Below are positions 4,228 to 16,497 of a stretch of 64,000 nucleotides of DNA, piece by piece. The position numbers and the translations under genes are program-made. The first letter of the stretch is position 1; each line of letters opens with the position of its first letter. Source of the DNA: an uncultured bacterium (GTDB taxonomy: Bacteria; Patescibacteriota; Minisyncoccia; Phycocordibacterales; GWA1-40-21); NCBI GenBank assembly GCA_903831305.1, contig CAIKXE010000004.1:147524-211523 (forward strand). Direction: 5' to 3'. The notes beneath the pieces are model-generated. The model was not told the DNA's origin. It did no database searches and was given only the letters and a program-made list of their open reading frames with translations.

Positions 4228-5472
4228 ATGCAAATAAAATATAGTATAAAAACAGCAGTCAACGGTTTGCGGACACATAAATCCCGCTCGGCTTTGACTA
4301 TTCTTGGAATCGTTATCGGCATTACTTCTATTATTATGGTGATGGCCTTGGGTGCGGGGGCGCAGAATCTGATTTTGGGTGAAATCCAGGGAACCATTGG
4401 CTCCAAGGTCATAGAGATCCGCCCAGGAAAAGAGCCCAAAGGACCGACTGATATGATGGGTATAATGTTTCTAGATTCGTTGAAACAAAAAGATGTTGAT
4501 GCCCTTAGTAAAAAAGCTAATGTCCCGTCTTTAACCGGAGTTATGCCTCTGGTTGTGGGAAGTGAAACCATAACTTATGACAGTGAGACTTACTCTGCCT
4601 CCTATTATGGCGTCAATCAGCTGGCCACCAGGATGTATAATATGATACCAGTAGCTGGCCGCTTTATGACGGAGGAAGAGGTCAAAGGCTTTGCGGATGT
4701 GGCAATTATCGGTAATAAGGTCAGAGAAGAACTTTTTGCTGGTAAAGATAAAGTTTTAGGTGAGAAGATCAGAATAAAAGGAAAGAATTTTAGGATTATT
4801 GGTATTCTGCCGGAGAAAGGCTCGGGTATGGTCAGCTTTGATACTATTGTTATTGTTCCTTATACTACCGCTCAGCAATATTTATCCGGTAAAAAATATT
4901 TTCAGCATATTGTGGTGGAGGTTGATTCTGAGGCTAATGTCCCGAGAGCTATAGAAGATATTAAAACGACCATAAGGGACTCTCACAATATTACCAACCC
5001 CGAGGATGATGATTTTAGTCTGGGTAGCCAGGCCGACGCTATGAAGATGGTTAGCTCGGTTATGGATACCTTAACTTTGTTTCTGGTGGCGGTAGCGGCA
5101 ATTTCTCTCATTGTGGGAGGGGTGGGGATTATGAATATAATGCTCGTCTCGGTGACCGAGCGCACAAAGGAGATTGGTTTACGTAAAGCTCTGGGAGCAA
5201 CGGATAGTGATATTCTCATCCAGTTTTTACTGGAGGCTGTTATCCTTACGGCTCTTGGAGGGCTTATTGGTATTATTTTGGGCTCCGGCTTATCTCTCAT
5301 TACTTCTGTCTTGATAAATAAATTTGCTGCCTTAAATTGGACTTTCTCTTTCCCTTGGGGTGGGGCCTTCCTGGGCCTAGGTGTTTCCAGCTTGATTGGC
5401 CTCGTCTTTGGTATTTACCCCGCTCGCCAGGCGGCTAAAAAGAGTCCGATGGAAGCGTTGCGGTATGAGTAA
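4228..5472 (+). CDS. ABC transporter permease, MacB-like (N-terminal TM, periplasmic domain, C-terminal FtsX 3-TM)
   Basis: 414 aa with MacB_PCD-like architecture and a C-terminal block of the FtsX type (…IGLRKALGAT…). Confidence 0.7.
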   Translation: MQIKYSIKTAVNGLRTHKSRSALTILGIVIGITSIIMVMALGAGAQNLILGEIQGTIGSKVIEIRPGKEPKGPTDMMGIMFLDSLKQKDVDALSKKANVPSLTGVMPLVVGSETITYDSETYSASYYGVNQLATRMYNMIPVAGRFMTEEEVKGFADVAIIGNKVREELFAGKDKVLGEKIRIKGKNFRIIGILPEKGSGMVSFDTIVIVPYTTAQQYLSGKKYFQHIVVEVDSEANVPRAIEDIKTTIRDSHNITNPEDDDFSLGSQADAMKMVSSVMDTLTLFLVAVAAISLIVGGVGIMNIMLVSVTERTKEIGLRKALGATDSDILIQFLLEAVILTALGGLIGIILGSGLSLITSVLINKFAALNWTFSFPWGGAFLGLGVSSLIGLVFGIYPARQAAKKSPMEALRYE

Positions 5473-5643
5473 CTCCACCACCTCCCCTCGAGGACTCGGT
5501 ACTCCTCCTTAATCAAGGAGGAGAAAGGGGAGTTGCTAAAACTGAGTACTAATGTTCCCTTTCCCCACCTTAGTCAAGGCGGGGTGGTGAGTCTGCGAAC
5601 CAGGGCGGTTGTGTTAGCTTTATTTCTATATTACTATCTATCA

Positions 5644-6519
5644 ATGCTAAAAATATTAGATGGACGAGTGGTGCGGGATAAGATAATGGCGGATTTGAAA
5701 AAAACCGTTGGTACTTTCAAAGTGGTGCCTAATTTAGCCATCATAAAGATCGGGGATAATCCAGATTCTGCTGTCTATGTCAAAAATAAAATTTCTTTCG
5801 CTAAAAAGATTGATGTGAATGCTTATGTGGTTTATTTTCCTCCCGGGGAAATCACTCAGGAAGTGCTCTTGGCTGAAATTGAAAAATTAAATAAAGATGA
5901 TGCGGTGAATGGCATTATCATTCAATCACCATTACCAGAACCGCTAAATTGGGCGGAGGCCGTAGAGGCGGTGGTACCAGAAAAAGATGTGGATGGCCTG
6001 ACGGCGGTCAATGTCAAAAAGTTATTAGGGAATGATTTGTCTGGTTTTGTCCCGGCCACGGCGCGCGGGGTTTTATCCTTGCTAAATTATTATGAAATAC
6101 CAATTAAGGGTAAAAAGGTGGTGGTGATGGGGCGGTCAGCCTTGGTGGGTAAGCCCGTGGCTAATTTAATGCAGAACAGTGGTGCCACAGTGACCGTTTG
6201 CCACAGTAAAACCGTTAATCCCGAAAAAGAAACCAGAGAAGCGGACATTTTGATTGTGGCTATTGGTCAGCCAGAGCTTGTGGGGGCGGATTATGTGCAG
6301 GTGGGGCAAGTGGTGATAGATGTGGGTATTACTTCGGTCATAAATGCTGATGGTACAAAAAAAGTCCTGGGGGATGTGGATTTTGAGTCCGTTAAAAACA
6401 TTGTTTCGGCTATTTCTCCGGTTCCCGGTGGGGTGGGCCCTATGACCGTAGCCTCTTTATTTCAAAATTTAGTGGAGGCAGTAGAAAGAAAAAACCGTCA
6501 GGACATACTTTCCGTTTAA
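5644..6519 (+). CDS. folD: Bifunctional methylenetetrahydrofolate dehydrogenase/cyclohydrolase
   Basis: MLKILDGRVV… start and Rossmann motif VVVMGRSALVGKPVANLM. The listed ORF starts upstream, but a FolD-like start (ATG at 5644) is in frame. Confidence 0.8.
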   Translation: MLKILDGRVVRDKIMADLKKTVGTFKVVPNLAIIKIGDNPDSAVYVKNKISFAKKIDVNAYVVYFPPGEITQEVLLAEIEKLNKDDAVNGIIIQSPLPEPLNWAEAVEAVVPEKDVDGLTAVNVKKLLGNDLSGFVPATARGVLSLLNYYEIPIKGKKVVVMGRSALVGKPVANLMQNSGATVTVCHSKTVNPEKETREADILIVAIGQPELVGADYVQVGQVVIDVGITSVINADGTKKVLGDVDFESVKNIVSAISPVPGGVGPMTVASLFQNLVEAVERKNRQDILSV

Positions 6520-6559
6520 CGGAGTACCTAATCACTTCAAGTATGTCCTGACGGTTTTT
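6491..6559 (+). terminator. Rho-independent terminator hairpin after folD
   Basis: aaaaaccgtcaggacatact … agtatgtcctgacggttttt. It is a ~20-bp perfect inverted repeat whose 5' arm overlaps the end of folD, followed by TTTTT. Confidence 0.5.
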
Positions 6560-6617
6560 CCCCTAATATGCTATAATACCCCTGTCGGTACTTTTATTAA
6601 GTTAATTTATAAAAAAT

Positions 6618-7481
6618 ATGGAAAATACGAATAATCAAAATAGTTGTTGTGAAGGTGGAGTTTGTAAGGACGGTGCTACTTGTGGTTCTTGTTGTAAAAT
6701 GTGTGAAAACATGGGCATGTGCCATGGTGGTAAGGGCCACAAAATAATGAAGTTTGCTGTTATTATCATTGTCATCCTTATCATTGTTAAAATTCTTGGT
6801 GGTGGTCATGGTGACTGGAGAGATAATAAAGTAATAAACACCATTACCGTCTCTGGTACTGGTGAAATAGTGGTCAAGCCAGATATTGCCACTGTTTCTT
6901 TTGGTGTTACCGCTGAAAATCTGGATGTAGCCAAAGCGCAAACAGAGTCCGCCACAAAAATAAATAATATTATTGCTTTCCTAAAAACTAAGGGCGTTGA
7001 GGAAAAGGACATTAAGACTACAAACTATAGTATCTACCCTCGTTATAATTATGTCGGTGCTACTACTTATTATCCTTACACTGGCAGGCAGGTACTCGCG
7101 GCTTATGTTATTTCTCAGAACATAGAAGTAAAAATCCGAAATATTGCTGATGCCGGCGCCGTTCTTACTGGGGTGGGTGAGTTTGGAGTGACGGATGTCA
7201 GTGGTTTGACTTTCACCGTGGATAATCAAGATGCCGTAAAGGATCAAGCCAGGGACCTTGCTATCACTGATGCCAAGGCTCAAGCCAAGGTTTTAGCTAA
7301 TGGTTTGGGAGTAAAATTAGTCAAGATCACTAGTTTTTCTGAAGGTGGAAACTATCCAGTATATTACGCTATGGATAAGGCCGCTGTTTCTGGTATGGGT
7401 GGAGGTGTTGTGGCCCCTCAAATACCAACCGGGGAGAACAAAATCACTTCTACTGTCAGCGTCACTTACGAAATCAGATAG
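6618..7481 (+). CDS. SIMPL/DUF541-domain protein with Cys-rich cytoplasmic N-terminus and single TM
   Basis: Residues ~80-287 match the SIMPL / 26-kDa periplasmic immunogenic protein pattern (TITVSGTGEIVVKPD…, …TVSVTYEI). The N-terminal 40 aa contain 10 Cys plus His (CCEGGVCKDGATCGSCCKMCENMGMCHGGKGH) followed by a hydrophobic helix. Confidence 0.55.
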   Translation: MENTNNQNSCCEGGVCKDGATCGSCCKMCENMGMCHGGKGHKIMKFAVIIIVILIIVKILGGGHGDWRDNKVINTITVSGTGEIVVKPDIATVSFGVTAENLDVAKAQTESATKINNIIAFLKTKGVEEKDIKTTNYSIYPRYNYVGATTYYPYTGRQVLAAYVISQNIEVKIRNIADAGAVLTGVGEFGVTDVSGLTFTVDNQDAVKDQARDLAITDAKAQAKVLANGLGVKLVKITSFSEGGNYPVYYAMDKAAVSGMGGGVVAPQIPTGENKITSTVSVTYEIR

Positions 7482-7590
7482 CGTTTCTAGGGTAATTTGA
7501 TTTTGGAGGCTTCACAGCCGGGTAGGCGAGAGAGAGCAAATTTTCAGCAGAAAATTATGCGCACTCCAAAATTAAATTACCTAGAAACGC
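7481..7590 (+). repeat. Copy A of a ~72-nt structured repeat element embedded in the loop of a terminator hairpin
   Basis: Outer stem gcgtttctagggtaattt / aaattacctagaaacgc encloses the core 7501-7572 (ttttggaggcttcacagccgggtaggcgagagagagcaaattttcagcagaaaattatgcgcactccaaaat). The core is internally palindromic (ttttggag…ctccaaaa; gcaaattttc…gaaaattatgc). Confidence 0.5.
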
Positions 7591-7673
7591 GGACATTGCA
7601 TTTTGTTTTGCTACGTGGTAGTATTAAAAGACCTCGGAGACGGGGTTTTTTAATAAAAGAATAATATAAAACT

Positions 7674-7871
7674 ATGTCAAAACTAGGAGAATATTTGAAG
7701 GAAACAAAGGCGGAGTTAAAGCATGTGAGCTGGCCATCTAAGAATCAGGCGGTGTTATTCACTGTGATTGTTGTCGTTTTTTCTATCATTGTGGCTATCT
7801 TCCTGGGGGCTTTTGACTATATTTTTACCATTGGACTCAAAAAAGTTTTGGAGCTCAAAAATCTGATTTAA
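7674..7871 (+). CDS. secE: Preprotein translocase subunit SecE
   Basis: 65 aa with a single C-terminal TM helix and the conserved synteny directly upstream of nusG. The pattern …KETKAELKHVSWPSK… is typical SecE. Confidence 0.75.
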   Translation: MSKLGEYLKETKAELKHVSWPSKNQAVLFTVIVVVFSIIVAIFLGAFDYIFTIGLKKVLELKNLI

Positions 7872-7895
7872 TAATTTAAATTTTAAACCAAATAA

Positions 7896-8441
7896 ATGGC
7901 TAAACAAAATATACAAGAAGGTAGAAATTGGTATGCTATCCACACTTATGCGGGTTATGAAAATGCCGTGGCTAGAAATCTAAAGCAGAGAATTGACTCC
8001 TTGAATATGAATGACAAGATCTTTGAGGTGATTGTTCCGATTGAGAAAAAGATTAAAATCAAAGGTGGTAAAAGAATAGAAGAGGAAGAGAAGATCTACC
8101 CCGGTTATGTCCTGGTGGATATGGCCGTGACTGATGATTCCTGGTATGTAGTGAGAAACACCCCTCGGGTGACCGGGTTTGTGGGTTCTGGGGTTTATCC
8201 GGTACCGCTAAGTAAAGAGGAGGTAGACAATATTTTCAGCCGAATGAACGCCAATACCGTCAAGCATAATAGCGGTTTGTCTGTAGATGACGCGGTGGTG
8301 ATTACGGATGGTCCGTTTAAGGATCTGGAAGGTAAGGTGAGTGAGGTGGATAACGAGCGTGGTAAGGTCAAGGTGTTGGTTTTGATGTTTGGCCGGGAGA
8401 CTTCTGTGGAGCTTGATATGTTGCAGATTCGCCCAATTTAA
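7896..8441 (+). CDS. nusG: Transcription termination/antitermination factor NusG
   Basis: NGN domain (WYAIHTYAGYENAV) and C-terminal KOW motif (GKVSEV…GKVKVLVLMFGRETSVELD). Confidence 0.85.
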   Translation: MAKQNIQEGRNWYAIHTYAGYENAVARNLKQRIDSLNMNDKIFEVIVPIEKKIKIKGGKRIEEEEKIYPGYVLVDMAVTDDSWYVVRNTPRVTGFVGSGVYPVPLSKEEVDNIFSRMNANTVKHNSGLSVDDAVVITDGPFKDLEGKVSEVDNERGKVKVLVLMFGRETSVELDMLQIRPI

Positions 8442-8498
8442 GGTAGTTTATTAATAGTCTGATTCGCTTCTAAGTCAGACAAATTATAAAATAAAAAA

Positions 8499-8924
8499 AT
8501 GGCAAAGAAAATAACAAAAAAATTAAAGTTACAAATCCCGGCTGGTAAAGCTAATCCCGCTCCACCAGTTGGCCCCGCTCTTGGTCAGGCTGGTATTAAT
8601 ATCGGTGACTTCGTCCAAAAGTTTAATGCCGCTACCGTGAAGATGATGGGGGACATTGTCCCGGTGGAAATCACTGTTTATGAGGATCGTTCTTATGATT
8701 TTAAACTAAAGACTCCACCCGCAACCGGTTTGATTCTTAAGGCCGCTGGCGTGGAGAGTGGTTCTGGTAAGCAATTAGTCAAAAAGGCTGGTACTATCAC
8801 TCGTGCTCAGGTCAAAGCCATCGCGGAGAAGAAAATGGCTGATCTAAATGCCAATGATATCAACGGTGCCATGAAAATCATTGAGGGCTCTTGTAGGTCT
8901 ATGGGGGTGGAAGTGAAGGGGTGA
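8499..8924 (+). CDS. rplK: 50S ribosomal protein L11
   Basis: [35 protein letters not shown]… is canonical L11. Confidence 0.95.
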
Positions 8925-8933
8925 TTTTGTTCG

Positions 8934-9036
8934 CCCCGTAACTATATCATTTTGGAGTGCGCATAATTTTCTGCTGAAAATTTGCTCTCTCTCGGCTACC
9001 CGCCTGTGAAGCCTCCAAAACGATACAGTTACGGGG
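8934..9036 (-). repeat. Copy B of the ~72-nt structured repeat element (inverted relative to copy A), in the loop of the rplK terminator hairpin
   Basis: Outer stem ccccgtaactatatcatttt / aaaacgatacagttacgggg. Core 8949-9020 is the reverse complement of the copy A core with 2 substitutions in 72 nt. Confidence 0.5.
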
Positions 9037-9061
9037 CTCACCTAAATAATTGATATTACAA

Positions 9062-9100
9062 ACAAAAAACAACCCTTTATCAAGGGTTGTTTTTTGTACT
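9062..9100. terminator. Hairpin terminator
   Basis: aaaaaacaaccctttatcaagggttgttttttg, with A-run and T-run on either side. Confidence 0.5.
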
Positions 9101-9120
9101 GTGGGGTGTAAAATCAAGGG

Positions 9121-9615
9121 ATGGAAAATACTAAATATGTGCGACCGAGTTGGGATGAATATTTTATGAATATTGTGCGAGCCGTTGGCGGGAGGGCTAC
9201 TTGTGATCGGGGGCGAACCGGCTGTGTGATTGTAAAAGATAAACATATTATTTCCACTGGTTATGTGGGAGCACCGGCTGGTTGTAAAAGCTGTGATGAG
9301 GTTGATCACGAATTAAACACGGTCATTCAGGAAGATGGTACCCAAACAAAACATTGTGTGCGGACTACTCACAATGAACAAAACGCGCTTGTTCAAGCTG
9401 CTCGTTTTGGTGTCAGTACTGATGGTGGAACTTTGTATTGTATGATGACACCGTGTTATACCTGTGCCAAATTGCTGATTAATGCGGGCATTAAAAGAGT
9501 AGTTGCGGAAAAAGATTATCATGCGGGGACTAGGAGTAAGGCAATATTTGCTGAAGCGGGTGTTCAGTATGAATTATTAAATGCCGAGGTGGTGTCTTAT
9601 TCTAATATGAAATAA
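9121..9615 (+). CDS. dCMP deaminase (cytidine/deoxycytidylate deaminase family, ComEB-like)
   Basis: Zinc-binding motifs H-N-E-Q-N-A (HNEQNAL) and PCYTCAKLLINAGIKRVV. Confidence 0.8.
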   Translation: MENTKYVRPSWDEYFMNIVRAVGGRATCDRGRTGCVIVKDKHIISTGYVGAPAGCKSCDEVDHELNTVIQEDGTQTKHCVRTTHNEQNALVQAARFGVSTDGGTLYCMMTPCYTCAKLLINAGIKRVVAEKDYHAGTRSKAIFAEAGVQYELLNAEVVSYSNMK

Positions 9616-9616
9616 T

Positions 9617-10171
9617 ATGGCTGAATTAATTTTAGGTTTAACCGGTCCGATCTCTTGTGGTAAAGGTACAGTTAAAAAATATATAGTAGAAAAATACAAA
9701 GCGGAGGATTGTCGTTTTTCTACGATTCTAAGGGATGTGTTAAACCGAGTGGATTTACCAACCAGCCGTGATAATTTGATAAAAGTTTCAACCGTTTTAA
9801 GACAGACTTTTGGTGAAGATTTGCTAGCCAAGGCTATTGCTAAGGATGCTTCCGGTTTAAATTCTAAGGTCGTGGTTATAGATGGGATCAGGCGCATGAC
9901 GGATATTGGCCACCTGATTAATCTACCGCATTTTGTTTTAGTTAGCGTGGATGCTAGCCCTAAAGTCCGTCATGAGCGTTTAGTTTTAAGAAAAGAAAAT
10001 GAAGGTGATGCCCAAAAAACTTTTGAAGACTTTTTAGCGGATCATAGACGGGAGACGGAGATCACTATTCCAGAAGTGATGAGCCAAGCTAGAGAAAAGA
10101 TAAATAATGATGGGGATTTTACTGTTTTGTATAAACAAGTGGATACTATTATCAGCAAATATATAAAATAA
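9617..10171 (+). CDS. P-loop nucleoside/nucleotide kinase family protein (AAA_17/dNK/CoaE-like)
   Basis: N-terminal Walker A GLTGPISCGKGT. It lies between dCMP deaminase and tmk; specific substrate not assignable. Confidence 0.45.
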   Translation: MAELILGLTGPISCGKGTVKKYIVEKYKAEDCRFSTILRDVLNRVDLPTSRDNLIKVSTVLRQTFGEDLLAKAIAKDASGLNSKVVVIDGIRRMTDIGHLINLPHFVLVSVDASPKVRHERLVLRKENEGDAQKTFEDFLADHRRETEITIPEVMSQAREKINNDGDFTVLYKQVDTIISKYIK

Positions 10172-10172
10172 A

Positions 10173-10793
10173 ATGCCCAAAGGAAAATTTATTGTCATTG
10201 ATAGTGGCGAGGGGGCAGGCAAGACCCTACAGCTAGAAAAAGCCAAGGCTCTCTTTGGTGATTCTTTGGTTTTGACCCGGGAGCCTGGTGGGTCACCATA
10301 TGCTGAGGAAATACGCCAGATTATTTTGAAGTCCCCAAACTCGGGGCAGGCGGATGCCAAGACTTTATTTGCTTTATTTTGGGCGGCTCGGGCGGATCAT
10401 CTGAAAAATACCGTTAGACCAGCGCTCGAAGCGGGTAAAACAGTGATTACGGACCGTTTTGATTCTTCCACTTTTGCCTATCAGATAATTGCTCAGGGGG
10501 CCACAGAGCTCAAAGACTTTTTTTGGCAAATGCGGGACTTTTATTTGGGTGATTTGAAGCCAGATTTATATATTTATTTTGATATTGACCCGGTAATCGG
10601 CTTAGCTAGAAAAAATAAACAAGGTGGAGCAGAATTAAACCATTTTGAAGCTAGAGAAATTAATTTTCATAATTCTTTGCGAGCCGGTTTTAAAGAATTT
10701 ATCGGTCACGTTCCGCATACCATTATTGATGCCAGCCAGTCGGTTGAAAAAGTCTGGGCTGATTTTAGTGCTGTTTTAAAAAAGAATTTATAA
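10173..10793 (+). CDS. tmk: Thymidylate kinase
   Basis: P-loop IVIDSGEGAGKT and TDRFDSSTFAYQ (DR…AYQ) motif. Confidence 0.85.
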   Translation: MPKGKFIVIDSGEGAGKTLQLEKAKALFGDSLVLTREPGGSPYAEEIRQIILKSPNSGQADAKTLFALFWAARADHLKNTVRPALEAGKTVITDRFDSSTFAYQIIAQGATELKDFFWQMRDFYLGDLKPDLYIYFDIDPVIGLARKNKQGGAELNHFEAREINFHNSLRAGFKEFIGHVPHTIIDASQSVEKVWADFSAVLKKNL

Positions 10794-10814
10794 AGATTTT
10801 AATCAAATAAAAAG

Positions 10815-12104
10815 ATGAAAGTATTTGTTTATGATGAGTTTGGTCCTCAGGATACTGCTATGATGCAGGCCCTATATTCTAGAAGTGCTCAGAGTGTGGA
10901 GGAACACGTAAAAAAGGTTAGGGAAAGTAATTCGGGTAAATTCATGGAGCGTTTTTATGTGGGTTATGGTCATGCCAGTATTGCAGACTGTGGTAGCACC
11001 ACTATCTTTGTGGAGGGGGTGAGTATGCTGGTAGCCAAAGCCATACAAGATTGGCCACTATATTCTGGTCAGGAAACTAGTTCCCGCTATATTGATATGT
11101 CTCGGCAAGCTATCATTGACCCGGTGGGGACTAAAGACTCAAAACAAATATTAGATAGTTGGATGGAATTTTATACTAGTAGCCAAGCCGAGGTCCAAGC
11201 TCATATTGCTCAGAAATATCCTAGAAAAGAAGATGAAGATGAGGTGGTCTATTGTAAGGCCGTGACGGCTCGGGCTTTTGATACTTTGCGGGGGTTTTTA
11301 CCCGCGGGGGTCGCTACCCAGTTTAGCTGGCATACAAATTTACGCCAGGCCCATGACAAGTTGGTTTATCTGAGGCGCCATCCCTTAGCGGAGGTTCGAG
11401 AGGTGGCGGAAAAGATTTTAGCTAGTCTGAAAGAAAAATATGCTCAGAGCTTTGGCCATTTAGAAACTCCGGAGCAGGATAAATATTGGAATTTCTTAGG
11501 GAGCAAATATAATTATTATTTTAATAAAAGCGCTAAGGCATTTTTGGCTAAAACTAATATTAATAAAAAGGAAATTGCTCAGTATAATGATATTTTTTCT
11601 AAACGAGCGCTGAAAACTGGCTTGCCTCATTTCTTGACGGAGCTTGGTAATGTGACTTTTGAATTTCTCCTAGACTTTGGTTCTTTCCGTGATATTCAGC
11701 GCCATCGAAACGGCGTCTGTCGAATGCCACTTTTGACATCTAAATTTGGTTTTAATGACTGGTATTTAAACGAATTACCAGAAAGCGTCCGTAAAACGGC
11801 CGAGAAGTTGATTAAAGAACAGGTTAAGTTGATTAATAAATTAAAAACCACTCCAGAGAACAAACAGTATTATTTGGCGATGGGTTTCAATGTCACTTGT
11901 AAAGTTTCTTATGGCTTACCAGCGGCTACTTATGTCTCAGAATTACGCTCAGGCCGATTAGTACACCCAACATTAAGAAAGGTAGCTCATCAGATGAGTA
12001 GAGCTTTAATAAAAATGTTTCCAAATTTAAAGTTGCAGTCAGACTTTAGTTTGGACGATTGGAATATTAGACGGGGAATGCAAGATATTAAGGAGAAAAA
12101 ATAA
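10815..12104 (+). CDS. ThyX-like flavin-dependent thymidylate synthase, unusually long (429 aa) with the ThyX signature split between the two halves
   Basis: The sequence shows QETSSRY (aa ~88-93), resembling the ThyX substrate-binding S-x-R-Y element, and RHRNGVCRMPLLTS (aa ~296) containing the RHR triad. Operon context is dCMP deaminase, tmk, glyA and dut. Family assignment is inferred. Confidence 0.45.
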   Translation: MKVFVYDEFGPQDTAMMQALYSRSAQSVEEHVKKVRESNSGKFMERFYVGYGHASIADCGSTTIFVEGVSMLVAKAIQDWPLYSGQETSSRYIDMSRQAIIDPVGTKDSKQILDSWMEFYTSSQAEVQAHIAQKYPRKEDEDEVVYCKAVTARAFDTLRGFLPAGVATQFSWHTNLRQAHDKLVYLRRHPLAEVREVAEKILASLKEKYAQSFGHLETPEQDKYWNFLGSKYNYYFNKSAKAFLAKTNINKKEIAQYNDIFSKRALKTGLPHFLTELGNVTFEFLLDFGSFRDIQRHRNGVCRMPLLTSKFGFNDWYLNELPESVRKTAEKLIKEQVKLINKLKTTPENKQYYLAMGFNVTCKVSYGLPAATYVSELRSGRLVHPTLRKVAHQMSRALIKMFPNLKLQSDFSLDDWNIRRGMQDIKEKK

Positions 12105-12105
12105 T

Positions 12106-13314
12106 ATGAAAGACAAACAAATTGAAAAACTGATTAAGGCGGAGGAGGGGAGGCAGAAGAAAACCATTTCTTTAATCGCGTCGGAAAATTATGTCTCGGC
12201 CGATGTTTTAAAAGCCCTCGGCTCCAAGTTTACAAATAAATATTCGGAAGGCTATCCCGGGCACCGTTATTATAAGGGGCAGACTTTTACGGATCAGGTG
12301 GAGGAGCTCTGCCGTAGCCGCGCCTTGAAACTTTTTAAATTAAATTCTAAAGATTGGGCGGTGAATGTGCAAGCCCTCTCTGGCTCACCAGCAAACTTGG
12401 CGGTTTACTTGGCCCTAGTGCCTCCGGGCGGTAAGGTGATGGGGATGTCCTTGGACCATGGTGGGCACCTTACTCATGGTCACAAAGTCTCCGCTACGGG
12501 TAAAATCTGGACGCAGGTGCCGTACGGGGTAGATAAAAATACTGAAGTTATAAATTATGACGAGATAAAAAAGATTGCTGTGGCGGAAAAGCCAGATATG
12601 ATTATTGCTGGCTATACCGCTTATCCACGGACAGTGGATTTTAAAAAGTTCCGAGAGATTGCGGATGTGGTAGTCCATCCTGAGGCTGGGCGAAGGACTA
12701 TACTCATGGTGGACATGTCACATTTTGCTGGGCTAGTGGCCGGTGGGGCTTATCCGTCACCGTTTGACTATGCAGATGTGGTAACCACCACGACTCATAA
12801 AACGCTTCGCGGACCGCGTAGCGCCTTGATTTTTTCTCGTCGGGATAAAACTAAACTGAATGCCAAAGGTAATCCAGTGAGCTTTGGTGACTTGATTGAT
12901 AAAGCCGTTTTCCCCGGGTTACAAGGTGGTCCGCATATGAATCAGATTGCCGCTGTAGCTGTGACCTTAAAAGAAGCTTCTACTCCCGCTTTTAAAAAGT
13001 ATGCCAAACAGGTGGTGAAGAATGCTAAGGTGCTAGCAGAGGAATTAAAGAAGATGGGTTGGAAGATTATCTCTGGTGGTACGGATAGTCATTTGATTTT
13101 GGTGGACACTGGGAAAATCAGCGGAGCCGAGGCAAGTGATAGATTGGAGAAAGTGGGGATTATTGTAAATAAAAATACCATCCCAAACGAGCCTAGGAGC
13201 CCCATGGATCCCTCCGGTATCCGCCTTGGTACTGCCGGAGAAACCACCCGCGGGGCTAAGGAAAAGGATATGGTGAAGCTCGCTAAAAGGATTGATCAAG
13301 CTTTGAAAAAATAA
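12106..13314 (+). CDS. glyA: Serine hydroxymethyltransferase
   Basis: ENYVSADVLKALGSKFTNKYSEGYPGHRYY and the PLP-lysine region TTTTHKTLRGPR. Confidence 0.9.
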   Translation: MKDKQIEKLIKAEEGRQKKTISLIASENYVSADVLKALGSKFTNKYSEGYPGHRYYKGQTFTDQVEELCRSRALKLFKLNSKDWAVNVQALSGSPANLAVYLALVPPGGKVMGMSLDHGGHLTHGHKVSATGKIWTQVPYGVDKNTEVINYDEIKKIAVAEKPDMIIAGYTAYPRTVDFKKFREIADVVVHPEAGRRTILMVDMSHFAGLVAGGAYPSPFDYADVVTTTTHKTLRGPRSALIFSRRDKTKLNAKGNPVSFGDLIDKAVFPGLQGGPHMNQIAAVAVTLKEASTPAFKKYAKQVVKNAKVLAEELKKMGWKIISGGTDSHLILVDTGKISGAEASDRLEKVGIIVNKNTIPNEPRSPMDPSGIRLGTAGETTRGAKEKDMVKLAKRIDQALKK

Positions 13315-13736
13315 TGATTTTAAAAATTAAAAAGTTAAATAGCGAGGCGGTGATGCCCAAGTATGCCACGAGAGGTGATGCGGGGATGGATTTGTTTTGC
13401 TTGGACCGGGTGGTGGTGGCGCCAATGGCACGGGTGCAGGTCAGTACCGGACTAGCCATGGAGATACCGGAGGGTTTTGTGGGACTGATCTGGGATAAAA
13501 GTAGTTTGGCCCATAAGTTTGGGCTAAAGATTCTTGGCGGAGTGATTGATTCTGGCTACCGTGGGGAAATAAAGATCGGTATTATAAATTTAAGTACAGA
13601 GGATTATATTTTTGAAAAGGGACATAAGGTGGCGCAGATGATAATTCAGAAAAAGGAAACGCCGGAGATTGTGGAGGTGACGGATCTCTCAGTGACTGAT
13701 CGTGGTGAGTCTGGTTTTGGTAGTACAGGGAAGTAG
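13314..13736 (+). CDS. dut: dUTP diphosphatase
   Basis: ATRGDAGMDL and GVIDSGYRGEI motifs. Overlaps the glyA stop (ATGA). Confidence 0.9.
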   Translation: MILKIKKLNSEAVMPKYATRGDAGMDLFCLDRVVVAPMARVQVSTGLAMEIPEGFVGLIWDKSSLAHKFGLKILGGVIDSGYRGEIKIGIINLSTEDYIFEKGHKVAQMIIQKKETPEIVEVTDLSVTDRGESGFGSTGK

Positions 13737-13799
13737 GTTTGCTTGCCCGCCCGAAGCTTTCTTAAGCGAAGGAGGGGGAGTACGGGAAAGTAAAATAAA

Positions 13800-13846
13800 A
13801 AAGAGGGCCCCGCTGACAGTAATCTGTCGGCGGGGCCTTTAGGCTT
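13800..13846. terminator. Bidirectional GC-rich hairpin terminator between dut (+) and the NMO gene (-)
   Basis: aaaaagagggccccgctgacagtaatctgtcggcggggccttt. Confidence 0.5.
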
Positions 13847-13860
13847 GGGCTCATATCCTT

Positions 13861-14934
13861 TCAGTTATGAGCGAGTTCTATCATTAGTTCGGAGACGGGG
13901 AGGATCTTGTCCACGCGGTAGGCGTTTGTACCCACGGTGTACATGGCCGGTTCACCGGGAGCAAGGCCTATGGCCGCGCGCAAGGCGTCACAGATGCAGA
14001 AATACTTGCTGTGCTCGGGGTGATTAGGGTGCGCTTTACAGATGGTATAGTGACCCTCCTTGTCCTTGCCCAGGACATAACCCATCCGGCATTTGGGACG
14101 GCGGGTACCAGCTAGTAGCTCCAGGTAAGCAGGTGAACATTTGAGTATCCGGAAAGGGAAACCACAAGGGGAGCTACCCACCGTTATGATATCTTCCTGT
14201 CGGCACTCCACCACCGCGCGTTTGAACTCCGCGGTTGCTGAGCTCTCTTCAGTCGCCAGGAATCTGGTTCCCAGCTGAACCCCGCTCGCTCCAAGTCCAC
14301 GGAACTTCCAGATGTCGGTGTTCGTGTAGATTCCTCCGGCTACTATCACTGGGATATTGCCATTTTTAGTGGCTACTTCCAGTACTTCTGGCAGAAGTTC
14401 TTCAAGCTCGAGCTCAGACTGGCCGATGTCTTCCAGACGAGCACCCAAGTGTCCACCAGCCGCGTTTGGTCCTTCCAGGATTATGACATCCGGTTTCTGG
14501 TGACAGTACCGGAGCATGATCTTGAGACCTCTTGCACTCGAGGTGATCAGTCCAAAAGCGGTGTCCTTAAAAATCGTCCCGCGTTTGGGCACACCAGCTC
14601 CAAAGAAGATCACGGACACTTTGGCATCCAGGGCCGCTGTGACCGTTTCATCATAGCTCTCCGCGAGGATACCCATGACGTTTAGTCCTACACCGTAGCC
14701 GTCAGTCATCGCGGTCGCAATCTCTTCCTGCACGGCTTCATACGTGGTGTATGACCGTCCTTTGGTGATGGTGTAGAAGTCCTTGAGTCCAGCACTAGAT
14801 AGAACCCCTAAGCCACCATTTCTCCAAACCGCGCGCGTCAACCGCGGTCCAGATACACCGGCGCCCATACCTCCTTGGATGATGCAATACGGCCGGACAA
14901 TGTTCCCAAATCTCAATTCAGGAATGGTACCCAT
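13861..14934 (-). CDS. Nitronate monooxygenase / 2-nitropropane dioxygenase (NMO/FabK-like FMN oxidoreductase)
   Basis: N-terminal IIQGGMGAGVSGPRLTRAV and TIM-barrel FMN-binding pattern. The gene is markedly GC-rich relative to the flanks. Confidence 0.8.
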   Translation of the reverse strand: MGTIPELRFGNIVRPYCIIQGGMGAGVSGPRLTRAVWRNGGLGVLSSAGLKDFYTITKGRSYTTYEAVQEEIATAMTDGYGVGLNVMGILAESYDETVTAALDAKVSVIFFGAGVPKRGTIFKDTAFGLITSSARGLKIMLRYCHQKPDVIILEGPNAAGGHLGARLEDIGQSELELEELLPEVLEVATKNGNIPVIVAGGIYTNTDIWKFRGLGASGVQLGTRFLATEESSATAEFKRAVVECRQEDIITVGSSPCGFPFRILKCSPAYLELLAGTRRPKCRMGYVLGKDKEGHYTICKAHPNHPEHSKYFCICDALRAAIGLAPGEPAMYTVGTNAYRVDKILPVSELMIELAHN

Positions 14935-15036
14935 ATTCGTCTCCTTACTAATATTAAAGATCTACGACTCTTCCTAAATACTAACACGGTTTACCGGATT
15001 ATTCTTTTTTTGCCAGTTATATGTTAGTCTTTTAAG

Positions 15037-16497
15037 ATGGTAAAAAAGATAATTAAAAAAGTTGTAAAAAAGGCAAAAGTGATAAAGTCACCAGCTACCG
15101 CCTATGATGTGGTTATTATTGGTGGCGGGCCAGCCGGACTCATGGCCGCGTGCCAAGCTGGCGGGGCAGGGAAAAAAGTTCTGGTCTTGGAGAAGAATGA
15201 CGAGCTCGGCAAAAAGCTACTAATCTCCGGTGGTGGGCGCTGTAACTTGACCAACGCTAATCCAAATCATCGAGAGTTTGTCAGTAAATATGGTAAGAAA
15301 GGAGATTTTTTATTCAGCCCATTCTCTATTTTTGGTGTACCAGAAACTATAAAGTTTTTTAATGATTTGGGTTTGGAGACAAAGATAGAACCTGGTTTTA
15401 GAGTGTTTCCTGTGAGTGATAATTCCGCCGATGTTTTAAATATTTTGGTCAATCAGGCAAAAAAGTTAGGTGTAGAGTTTAAATTGTCTGCGGAGGTGGC
15501 TTCTCTTTCCCCCTCATTAGATAAGGTGAGTTTTGGGATGGGATCCAAAACGCAAGACTTCGAGTATTCCGTATCCGGGAAGCGAGAAGTGTACTGTTCC
15601 TGTAAGGAAGGGGCTAGGGGGCAGTTGAAAAATCAGAAAAGGATTAAGTCCGTAGTTTTACTTTCTGGTGAAGAAATCTCTGCCCATAAATTTATTTTAG
15701 CCACTGGGGGCATGTCTCACCCGGAGACCGGCTCCACCGGTGACGGTTTTAAATGGCTAAAAGAGATCGGTCATAAAGTAACTACGCCTAATCCGTCTTT
15801 GGTCCCGGTGAAAGTTTCTAATCCTTGGATTGCCGAGCTCTCTGGTATTAGCTTGGATGCTGTAGGTATTTCTGTCTGGGTTAACCAAGGTGGTTTTAAA
15901 AAAGTTTTGACTAAAAAAGGACGGATTCTTTTCACCCATGTGGGTCTGACTGGGCCGACGATTTTAAATATGAGTAAAGCGATCGGGGAGTATTTGGAAT
16001 ACCCTAATCCCGAAGACGGTCGGGCAGGCGGTGAAGTCCTCATCTCTTTGGATCTTTTCTCCGGGGTGGGTTTGGATCAGATGCATGAGATGATGCTAAA
16101 GACTTTTACGGAGCATATAAATAAGAAAATAAAAAATCTGGTTTTCCCGCAGGTACCAGGGAAAATATTTGAGTTGATTTTAAAACAGCTGGAGATTGAT
16201 CCCGAGTGGGAGATAAATGAAATCCGCCGAGAAGAGCGCTTGGCACTGATTGAGAAATTTAAAAAGTTTGAACTGACGGCCTCCGGACTGCTAGGGTTTG
16301 ATAAAGCTATCATCACGAGCGGGGGACTAGACTTAGGCGAAGTGGATTTTAAGACTATGGGTTCTAAACTTTATGATAATTTGTATTTTGCCGGGGACAT
16401 CCTGGACTTTGACCGTCCTTCTGGTGGCTTCTCTCTCCAGCTCTGCTGGACCACTGGGTATATCGCGGGAAAAAGCTCAGTAAACGGCCTAAAATAA
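15037..16497 (+). CDS. HI0933/BaiN-family FAD-dependent oxidoreductase (aminoacetone oxidase family)
   Basis: YDVVIIGGGPAGLMAA dinucleotide-binding motif after a Lys-rich N-terminal extension. C-terminal GFSLQLCWTTGYIAG is typical of the HI0933 family. Confidence 0.8.
   Translation: MVKKIIKKVVKKAKVIKSPATAYDVVIIGGGPAGLMAACQAGGAGKKVLVLEKNDELGKKLLISGGGRCNLTNANPNHREFVSKYGKKGDFLFSPFSIFGVPETIKFFNDLGLETKIEPGFRVFPVSDNSADVLNILVNQAKKLGVEFKLSAEVASLSPSLDKVSFGMGSKTQDFEYSVSGKREVYCSCKEGARGQLKNQKRIKSVVLLSGEEISAHKFILATGGMSHPETGSTGDGFKWLKEIGHKVTTPNPSLVPVKVSNPWIAELSGISLDAVGISVWVNQGGFKKVLTKKGRILFTHVGLTGPTILNMSKAIGEYLEYPNPEDGRAGGEVLISLDLFSGVGLDQMHEMMLKTFTEHINKKIKNLVFPQVPGKIFELILKQLEIDPEWEINEIRREERLALIEKFKKFELTASGLLGFDKAIITSGGLDLGEVDFKTMGSKLYDNLYFAGDILDFDRPSGGFSLQLCWTTGYIAGKSSVNGLK

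Follow-up and report, generated by a model that had tools for sequence, protein, structure and literature searches.

Results

A predicted thymidylate operon beside nusG-rplK

We analysed a 64,000-nucleotide stretch of DNA (the window) from an uncultured bacterium of the Patescibacteriota (assembly GCA_903831305.1, contig CAIKXE010000004.1). The names of homologues and the sequencing runs that contain the DNA indicate a Paceibacteria-type member of the phylum from lake water. Positions 9121-13736 of the window hold six tightly packed open reading frames (ORFs) on the plus strand, which encode, in order, a dCMP deaminase, a P-loop kinase, thymidylate kinase (tmk), a Thy1-family ThyX of unusual length, serine hydroxymethyltransferase (SHMT, glyA) and a dUTPase (dut). 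We refer to the fourth protein as ThyX-long. The intergenic gaps are 1, 1, 21 and 1 nt, and the final pair of genes overlaps by 1 nt. All families were assigned by Pfam and NCBIfam profile searches, and the coordinates are collected in Table 1. A first-pass annotation of this DNA had described six consecutive, tightly packed plus-strand genes, a description borne out by the ORF coordinates, the gaps of 1-21 nt and the hairpins that flank the cluster. Each of the families it had named (dCMP deaminase, Tmk, ThyX, SHMT and dUTPase, with FolD nearby) is matched by Pfam or NCBIfam.

Table 1. Genes, domains and hairpins at and near the cluster, in window coordinates.
Feature	Position	Strand	Evidence
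FolD, methylenetetrahydrofolate dehydrogenase/cyclohydrolase, outside the operon	5644-6519	+	THF_DHG_CYH_C E 1e-59; THF_DHG_CYH E 2e-28
Intrinsic-terminator-like hairpin between rplK and the operon (10-bp stem, 4-nt loop, T6)	9068-9096	+	Sequence reading
dCMP deaminase	9121-9615	+	Pfam dCMP_cyt_deam_1 E 1e-22
P-loop kinase, UPF0200/SSO1041-type	9617-10171	+	Pfam AAA_17 E 5e-12
Tmk, thymidylate kinase	10173-10793	+	Thymidylate_kin E 4e-35; TIGR00041 141.9 bits (cut-off 83.25)
ThyX-long	10815-12104	+	Pfam Thy1 E 2e-22, 80.2 bits (gathering 24.8)
ThyX-long, N-terminal ThyX-fold domain, residues ~1-232	10815-11510	+	Thy1 match to residues 16-208; structure; motifs
ThyX-long, C-terminal ThyX-fold domain, residues ~240-429	11532-12104	+	Structure; profile; motifs
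SHMT, serine hydroxymethyltransferase (glyA)	12106-13314	+	SHMT E 7e-158; NF000586 509.9 bits (335)
Trimeric-type dUTPase (dut)	13314-13736	+	Pfam dUTPase E 4e-30; TIGR00576 149 bits (102.55)
14-bp hairpin between dut and a convergent NMO-like gene	13806-13837	.	A-run and T-run flanks; sequence reading

The same gene order, nusG-rplK-deaminase-kinase-(tmk)-thyX-(tmk)-glyA-dut, recurs on 20 contigs of related metagenome-assembled genomes (MAGs) fetched with the ThyX protein, often with folD and a SIMPL-like gene upstream. Finding the deaminase gene, instead of rplA, directly after rplK is also a conserved feature of these relatives. Among 20 distant Patescibacteria, the ThyX homologue adjoins glyA, folD, tmk, dut or the deaminase gene, in combinations that vary. 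The first-pass annotation had called this single locus unusually complete; being syntenic across Paceibacteria-type relatives, it is instead typical of its lineage.

Hairpins lie on both sides of the cluster, and the sequence of the one after dut makes it a likely bidirectional terminator. A promoter scan returned weak consensus matches, internal only (20 against 11.8 expected), with none upstream of 9121; by eye, a possible TAAAAT box can be read at 9109-9114, just 5′ of the deaminase start codon. An Rfam scan of positions 5000-15200 gave nothing near any gathering score, and no tetrahydrofolate (THF) or ZTP riboswitch was detected. From their spacing, the flanking hairpins and the synteny in 20 related contigs, we predict that the six genes form an operon.

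ThyX-long as a duplicated ThyX fold with divided catalytic residues

At 429 aa, ThyX-long is twice the usual size of a ThyX protein. More than 4,400 homologues match it over nearly its full length, and 2,081 clusters of a 50%-identity cluster library match at E<=0.001. We built an AlphaFold2 model on a 34-sequence phylum-wide alignment (pLDDT 91.9, pTM 0.89). In this model, residues 5-224 superpose on M. tuberculosis ThyX (3gwc_D; Z 12.9, root-mean-square deviation (rmsd) 3.6, 198 residues aligned), while residues 240-414 superpose on T. maritima ThyX (4kat_D/1kq4; Z 11.9, rmsd 3.2, 166 aligned). When the family profile was compared with the PDB, the N half matched M. tuberculosis ThyX (E 2e-15) and the C half matched the ThyX of PBCV-1 (E 4e-5). 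Compared by hhalign, the halves also matched one another (probability 79.5%, E 1.5e-5). Since BLASTP found no similarity between them (E 1.1), their homology is visible by profiles and predicted structure only. As modelled, ThyX-long carries two ThyX folds in tandem, a duplication that gives both halves the fold of canonical ThyX (T. maritima TM0449, M. tuberculosis Rv2754c and PBCV-1 A674R).

To locate the catalytic motifs, we aligned each half with seven short, canonical ThyX proteins of the same phylum. The N half keeps GH, E87, the S-x-R-Y loop (S89-R91-Y92, read SSRY), R159, which is the equivalent of T. maritima R147, and N175/R177, the equivalents of N163/R165; in this half QDW replaces RHR, and there is no equivalent of R174. 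The C half keeps RHR (R296-H297-R298) and R378, which is the equivalent of T. maritima R174. It has neither GH nor an R147 equivalent, and its S-x-R-Y loop is wholly deleted. The catalytic residues of canonical ThyX (GH, RHR, S-x-R-Y, R147 and R174) are therefore present in ThyX-long, divided between its halves, and these split residues, R159 and R378 included, are invariant in the 34-sequence alignment.

We think it rather probable that ThyX-long is a fused pseudo-dimer in which each chain forms one composite active site from residues of both halves. Such a site would combine S89/R91/Y92, R159 and N175/R177 of the N half with R296-H297-R298 and R378 of the C half. Canonical ThyX is a homotetramer with four sites. 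With two folds per chain, a dimer of ThyX-long would be expected to imitate that homotetramer with half the sites, two instead of four.

We determined how widespread the long form is in a sample of 200 Patescibacteria genomes. Full-length ThyA was present in 81 genomes and a Thy1 protein in 75, with an overlap of 0. ThyX-long thus has the genomic role of canonical ThyX, that of sole alternative to ThyA. Most of the 75 Thy1 proteins (58) were long, the other 17 being short and single-domain. Two-domain forms account for roughly three in four ThyX genes of this sample, and mechanistic and inhibitor work based on the homotetramer may not transfer to them. In lineages of the phylum that are only distantly related, the genes of ThyX-long homologues stand beside glyA, folD, tmk and dut, and fusions of Tmk with the two-domain ThyX, 787 aa long, occur in three lineages (e.g. 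L051:7118-9466, genome G186). In 18 genomes of the sample (e.g. G016:C1:430903-431289), partial Thymidylat_synt matches covering model positions ~85-230 lie inside proteins of 470-600 aa; by sequence, these look like a thymidylate synthase-like domain within a larger protein.

We found no literature joining ThyX with the candidate phyla radiation (CPR), Parcubacteria or Patescibacteria, and a 2018 ThyX review makes no mention of fused or duplicated ThyX. Nor did we find a solved structure or an assay of a two-domain ThyX; the domain type of the assayed C. trachomatis ThyX (PMC3498832) is unverified.

A predicted route to dTTP without ThyA or dihydrofolate reductase

We next consider the cluster against the rest of its genome, using six-frame profile searches of the whole assembly (760,696 bp in 13 contigs, estimated 98.67% complete). 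Thy1 matched exactly one locus (67.5 bits in the genome scan), while neither Thymidylat_synt (ThyA) nor DHFR_1, the dihydrofolate reductase (DHFR) model, gave a match anywhere in the genome. A separate dCTP deaminase (Dcd) was likewise not found, as the DCD model matches dut only. The folate enzymes found were SHMT, ThyX, FolD and Fmt, the last as a single Fmt-like formyltransferase gene; the whole-genome search recovered neither 5-formyl-THF cyclo-ligase (5-FCL) nor formyl-THF synthetase (FTHFS). A class II (B12-type) ribonucleotide reductase with an ATP-cone is encoded elsewhere in the genome, PyrG is present, and a nucleoside diphosphate kinase (Ndk) gene lies ~6 kb before the window (G000:C4:141189-141791). 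The Ndk frame aligns with its Pfam model as two segments (positions 1-49 and 53-135) with ~32 extra residues between them, a pattern that indicates an insertion in the predicted protein.

In the pathway that these genes would encode, dUMP arises in two ways, from dCMP through the deaminase and from dUTP through Dut, which also releases pyrophosphate. ThyX-long, the sole thymidylate-synthase candidate of the genome, would methylate dUMP with carbon supplied by SHMT, which would turn serine and THF into glycine and methylene-THF (CH2-THF). Tmk would then phosphorylate dTMP to dTDP, and Ndk would complete the route from dTDP to dTTP. The earlier claim that every step to dTTP is encoded in the locus therefore holds through dTDP, but the final phosphorylation to dTTP depends on Ndk, whose gene is not part of the operon. 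In ThyX chemistry, CH2-THF gives the carbon only and THF is released (PMC5954106, PMC8316439). Since ThyX releases THF and not dihydrofolate, SHMT, ThyX, FolD and Fmt together would close the folate cycle without DHFR, and the locus illustrates how a 0.76 Mb genome may do so with four enzymes. The synthesis of dTMP is considered part of the minimal Patescibacteria repertoire (PMC12455944).

A reading that fits the gene content is that the six genes are a housekeeping operon for thymidylate synthesis via a ThyX-type synthase, without ThyA or DHFR, and we hold it to be very likely. That ThyX-long acts as the thymidylate synthase is supported by the lack of overlap between ThyA and Thy1 genomes, the fusions to Tmk, the ThyX fold of both halves, the invariant split residues and the gene neighbours in distant lineages. 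In accord with the first-pass annotation, the frame at 10815-12104 is a ThyX homologue by sequence, profile and predicted fold, and the genome search found no thyA/folA pair elsewhere. Several points nonetheless weigh on the other side. ThyX-long scores 37.9 bits with the TIGR02170 ThyX equivalog, below the cut-off of 87.9, and neither half holds the full ThyX motif (RHR followed by S-x-R-Y), the full set being found only across both halves. Finally, the sequencing runs that contain this stretch are lake-water DNA metagenomes only, with no RNA run listed. The earlier name for the protein, a ThyX-like synthase, is apt for its Thy1 family and its fold and needs qualifying for a two-domain fused form that falls under the TIGR02170 cut-off.

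The divergence of ThyX-long, with its score under the equivalog cut-off and its split motifs, would also suit an enzyme that modifies another pyrimidine nucleotide. ThyX-long could, for example, methylate dCMP, with the deaminase then turning 5-methyl-dCMP into dTMP. The deaminase is always near ThyX-long, and some ThyX homologues act on other substrates, among them PolB, a structural match at Z 10.6. We nevertheless judge this alternative very unlikely. R174 activates dUMP by taking the proton from N3, and cytosine has no N3-H; S88, R90 and Y91 assist methylene transfer, and all four residues are named as essential (PMC8316439). The equivalent of R174, R378, is invariant, as are the equivalents of S88, R90 and Y91. 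Retention of the R174 equivalent therefore favours dUMP, not dCMP, as the substrate of ThyX-long. Moreover, the same operon contains Dut, which produces dUMP, and in many genomes that carry ThyX-long no ComEB-type deaminase was detected.

A ComEB/DCTD-type dCMP deaminase

Among solved structures, the deaminase best matches 2hvv, the dCMP deaminase of S. mutans (E 3e-27), followed by 4p9c, 1vq2 and 2w4l, and the protein is closest to the dCMP deaminases of S. mutans, cyanophage, T4 and human. The zinc motifs HxE (HNE) and PCxxC (PCYTC) are intact, and the allosteric GYNG motif (G[YW]NG) reads GYVG. With the TIGR02571 ComEB equivalog it scores 114 bits, below the cut-off of 219. It is a predicted zinc-dependent deaminase of the ComEB/DCTD type, acting on dCMP to give dUMP. 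It is also the only ORF of the cytidine deaminase (CDA) family in the genome, in which phmmer found no second, TadA-like member.

In a sample of 60 genomes of the same order, Dcd occurs in 29 and a ComEB-type deaminase in 8, and the two are nearly exclusive, with both present in 1. By its predicted gene content, the genome studied here is in the minority of its order that makes dUMP through dCMP. Like the Gram-positive ComEB-type route, the operon uses a dCMP deaminase together with Dut for dUMP, unlike the Dcd and Dut of E. coli. It departs from the ComEB-type route in the change of GYNG to GYVG and in the orphan kinase that accompanies the deaminase. Ten genomes of the order (e.g. G218:C2:166802-167785 and G221:C2:39728-40714) have frames of 353-402 aa with two tandem DCD domains, which, as read from sequence, follow the trend towards fused subunits that the two-domain ThyX also shows.

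A UPF0200-type kinase in the thymidylate operon

The P-loop kinase matches the archaeal UPF0200 protein SSO1041 (PDB 3lw7/3h0k) at E 2e-10 with 22% identity. Its AlphaFold2 model (pLDDT 93.5) superposes on 3lw7_A with Z 21.4 and rmsd 2.1 over 167 of 184 residues; SSO1041 was crystallised with AMP. Weaker structural matches were obtained to phosphomevalonate kinase (Z 17.2), dephospho-CoA kinases (Z 14-15), and the T4 dNMP kinase (1dek) and yeast UMP kinase (both Z 14.7). The archaeal UPF0200/SSO1041 proteins, termed 'AdkA-like' (3lw7, 3h0k; PRK08356), are thus the best match in both sequence and structure, and share the short-LID nucleoside monophosphate (NMP) kinase architecture. They differ in that the operon kinase is bacterial and lies within thymidylate operons, while for the archaeal proteins we found no assigned substrate.

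In a 24-sequence alignment of the kinase, the P-loop lysine K16, R51 and R92 (in DG-x-R) are invariant, and the LID arginines R118, R121 and R125 are nearly so. The kinase also aligns with human AK1 through the P-loop and arginine motifs. Since the lysine and arginine residues of NMP kinases are conserved together with the fold, we propose that the protein is an active phosphotransferase, which is what its sequence looks like. The first-pass annotation had taken this P-loop protein for a possible dNMP or deoxynucleoside kinase in salvage, which is a reasonable conjecture; of the two, a nucleoside-monophosphate kinase is the better fit.

The remaining NMP kinases of the genome bear on its substrate. 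No Pfam match was obtained in the genome for Cmk (Cytidylate_kin PF02224, E 0.001), Gmk, PyrH (AA_kinase) or CoaE, and a P-loop scan combined with phmmer returned Adk, Tmk and the UPF0200-type kinase as the only NMP-kinase-like ORFs. We tentatively suggest a (d)CMP kinase, an assignment whose chances we put somewhat below even. The enzyme would interconvert (d)CMP, and perhaps UMP and GMP as well, with the corresponding diphosphates, and it would set how dCMP is split between dCDP/dCTP and, by way of the deaminase, dTTP.

We also considered that the P-loop protein is a passenger in the operon with no relation to nucleotides, for instance a dephospho-CoA kinase. Its N-terminal GLTG...GK resembles that of CoaE, dephospho-CoA kinases are among its structural neighbours at the Z scores given above, TIGR00152 matches it weakly (E 8e-6), and the Pfam search detected no CoaE elsewhere in the genome. 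However, Pfam CoaE (PF01121) does not match the kinase even at E 0.01, and the TIGR00152 match amounts to 25.8 bits against a cut-off of 65.55 and spans residues 5-72 only. SSO1041 is a far better match. In addition, across the phylum the kinase repeatedly adjoins or is fused with dCMP deaminase, DHFR, Dut, Tmk and ThyA/ThyX. Together, these data leave the passenger explanation with hardly any credibility.

The kinase-deaminase pair and DcdV/AvcD

The kinase and deaminase are both homologous to domains of DcdV/AvcD (Vibrio cholerae VC0175; the dCTPase of PADLOC; NF041025), in which the P-loop and deaminase domains are both required to deaminate dCTP and dCMP (bioRxiv 10.1101/2021.03.31.437871). 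We considered whether the two proteins could be one two-subunit enzyme, a split housekeeping form of this PLK-DCD protein, in which case the P-loop protein would not be a free-standing NMP kinase. Such an enzyme would accept both dCMP and dCTP, converting the latter to dUTP, from which Dut would give dUMP.

Several lines of evidence are consistent with such an enzyme. The PADLOC dCTP-deaminase profile matches the kinase (E 1e-12, positions 154-297) and the deaminase (E 1e-21, positions 333-484) consecutively. Fused kinase-deaminase forms resembling DcdV/AvcD exist in Patescibacteria, and one of them, in genome G082, matches this profile at E 5e-49. Both genes are present in 27 genomes of the phylum sample and stand side by side in 19 of these (the kinase occurs in 49 of the 200 and the deaminase in 62), and dut is frequently the next gene after the pair. 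The genome has no Dcd, and the change from GYNG to GYVG is as reported for DcdV (bioRxiv 10.1101/2021.03.31.437871).

Other observations argue for separate enzymes. Of the 49 phylum genomes with the kinase, 22 are without the deaminase, and in the order sample the kinase is found with Dcd in 7 genomes and with neither in 4. Because the kinase is often present without the deaminase, a free-standing (d)NMP kinase is favoured over an obligate deaminase subunit. The kinase is also fused to DHFR, which links it to thymidylate metabolism generally and not to the deaminase alone, and all the catalytic arginines of NMP kinases are conserved, pointing to real phosphotransfer. Unlike DcdV/AvcD, the operon has two separate genes, in an order (deaminase, then kinase) that is the reverse of the fused proteins; it is a biosynthetic operon beside nusG-rplK with no defence context. 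The matches are of moderate strength (45 and 75 bits), and NF041025, whose cut-off is 400 bits, gives scores of 62.5 and 23. We consider the two-subunit enzyme improbable, and to the same degree its proposed action on dCTP. Even so, it is plausible that the pair is related to the defence enzymes DcdV/AvcD and serves a housekeeping role.

In other genomes, the kinase gene also adjoins dut, tmk and ThyA genes. Two natural fusions were recovered: DHFR with the kinase (L091:4208-5290, genome G003), beside thyA and a dCMP deaminase gene, and the kinase with dCMP deaminase (L092:4169-5284, the G082 protein mentioned above). On contigs of close relatives (L052:844-1416, L053:1620-2177 and L069), the protein in the kinase slot is 24-38% identical to the kinase, compared with 81-91% for the deaminase and 86-89% for ThyX. 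The sequences suggest in-place replacement by another UPF0200-like subfamily. Two genomes of the same order (G210:C3:7540-8088 and G253:C7:12094-12642) have kinase homologues that each contain one in-frame TAA.

Relation to known systems and combined interpretation

The operon shares with the phage T4 dNTP set (cd, td/ThyX, frd, gene 1 and gene 56) the grouping of dCMP deaminase, thymidylate synthase, a dNMP-type kinase and dUTPase. The T4 dNMP kinase is a structural neighbour of the operon kinase, as described above, and relatives of the kinase give sub-threshold matches to Pfam DNMK. Unlike the T4 set, the operon is a cellular housekeeping locus whose place beside nusG-rplK is kept by vertical synteny; ThyX and SHMT take the place of ThyA and DHFR, and a hydroxymethylase is absent. 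The pathway itself is an ordinary, textbook one, and it is the fused ThyX and the orphan kinase that are uncharacterised variants.

A model that joins these variants has three parts. ThyX-long would represent a distinct architectural class of single-chain, pseudo-heterodimeric ThyX in Patescibacteria (and, going by one Atlas hit, in some Verrucomicrobiota), which arose by duplication and complementary loss and retains a single composite site in each chain. The UPF0200 kinase would be the missing pyrimidine (d)NMP kinase of genomes without Cmk and PyrH, and it would also be the free-living counterpart of the P-loop domain of DcdV/AvcD. We offer this combination as a conjecture that is more doubtful than the (d)CMP kinase assignment taken singly. 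The frequency with which the kinase occurs apart from the deaminase speaks against the (d)CMP kinase assignment. A strong Cmk is found in ~33 of 201 Patescibacteria genomes, 3 of which have the kinase, so that Cmk is rare with or without the kinase; the argument from kinase-Cmk complementarity is weak, and we give it no weight. The locus nevertheless gives the orphan UPF0200 kinase family a concrete functional context, in a genome in which only three NMP-kinase-like genes were found.

Tmk, SHMT, dUTPase and FolD

SHMT has the pyridoxal phosphate (PLP)-lysine motif TTHK at residue 229. The dUTPase scores 138 bits with NF001862 (cut-off 103), and its characteristic motifs are readable, including the C-terminal RGESGFGSTG. 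The ORF of FolD opens at 5533; we place the start at the ATG at 5644, since the NCBIfam FolD models align from the corresponding residue, ~38. In other Patescibacteria, folD adjoins glyA and thyX.

A structured hairpin repeat at 8925-9060 of the window lies directly 5′ of the terminator-like hairpin that precedes the deaminase gene. The Tmk proteins of relatives (L057:8294-8986, L061:6571-7356 and L052:1404-2114) are of another type, with a DGSGKAT P-loop compared with SGEGAGKT here. In relatives the tmk gene stands before or after thyX, its slot having been reshuffled within the lineage. In one Zambryskibacteria MAG, a gene for a 144-aa Nuc_deoxyrib_tr protein (DNPH1/Rcl-like; L061:7360-7791, Pfam E 4e-17) lies between tmk and glyA.

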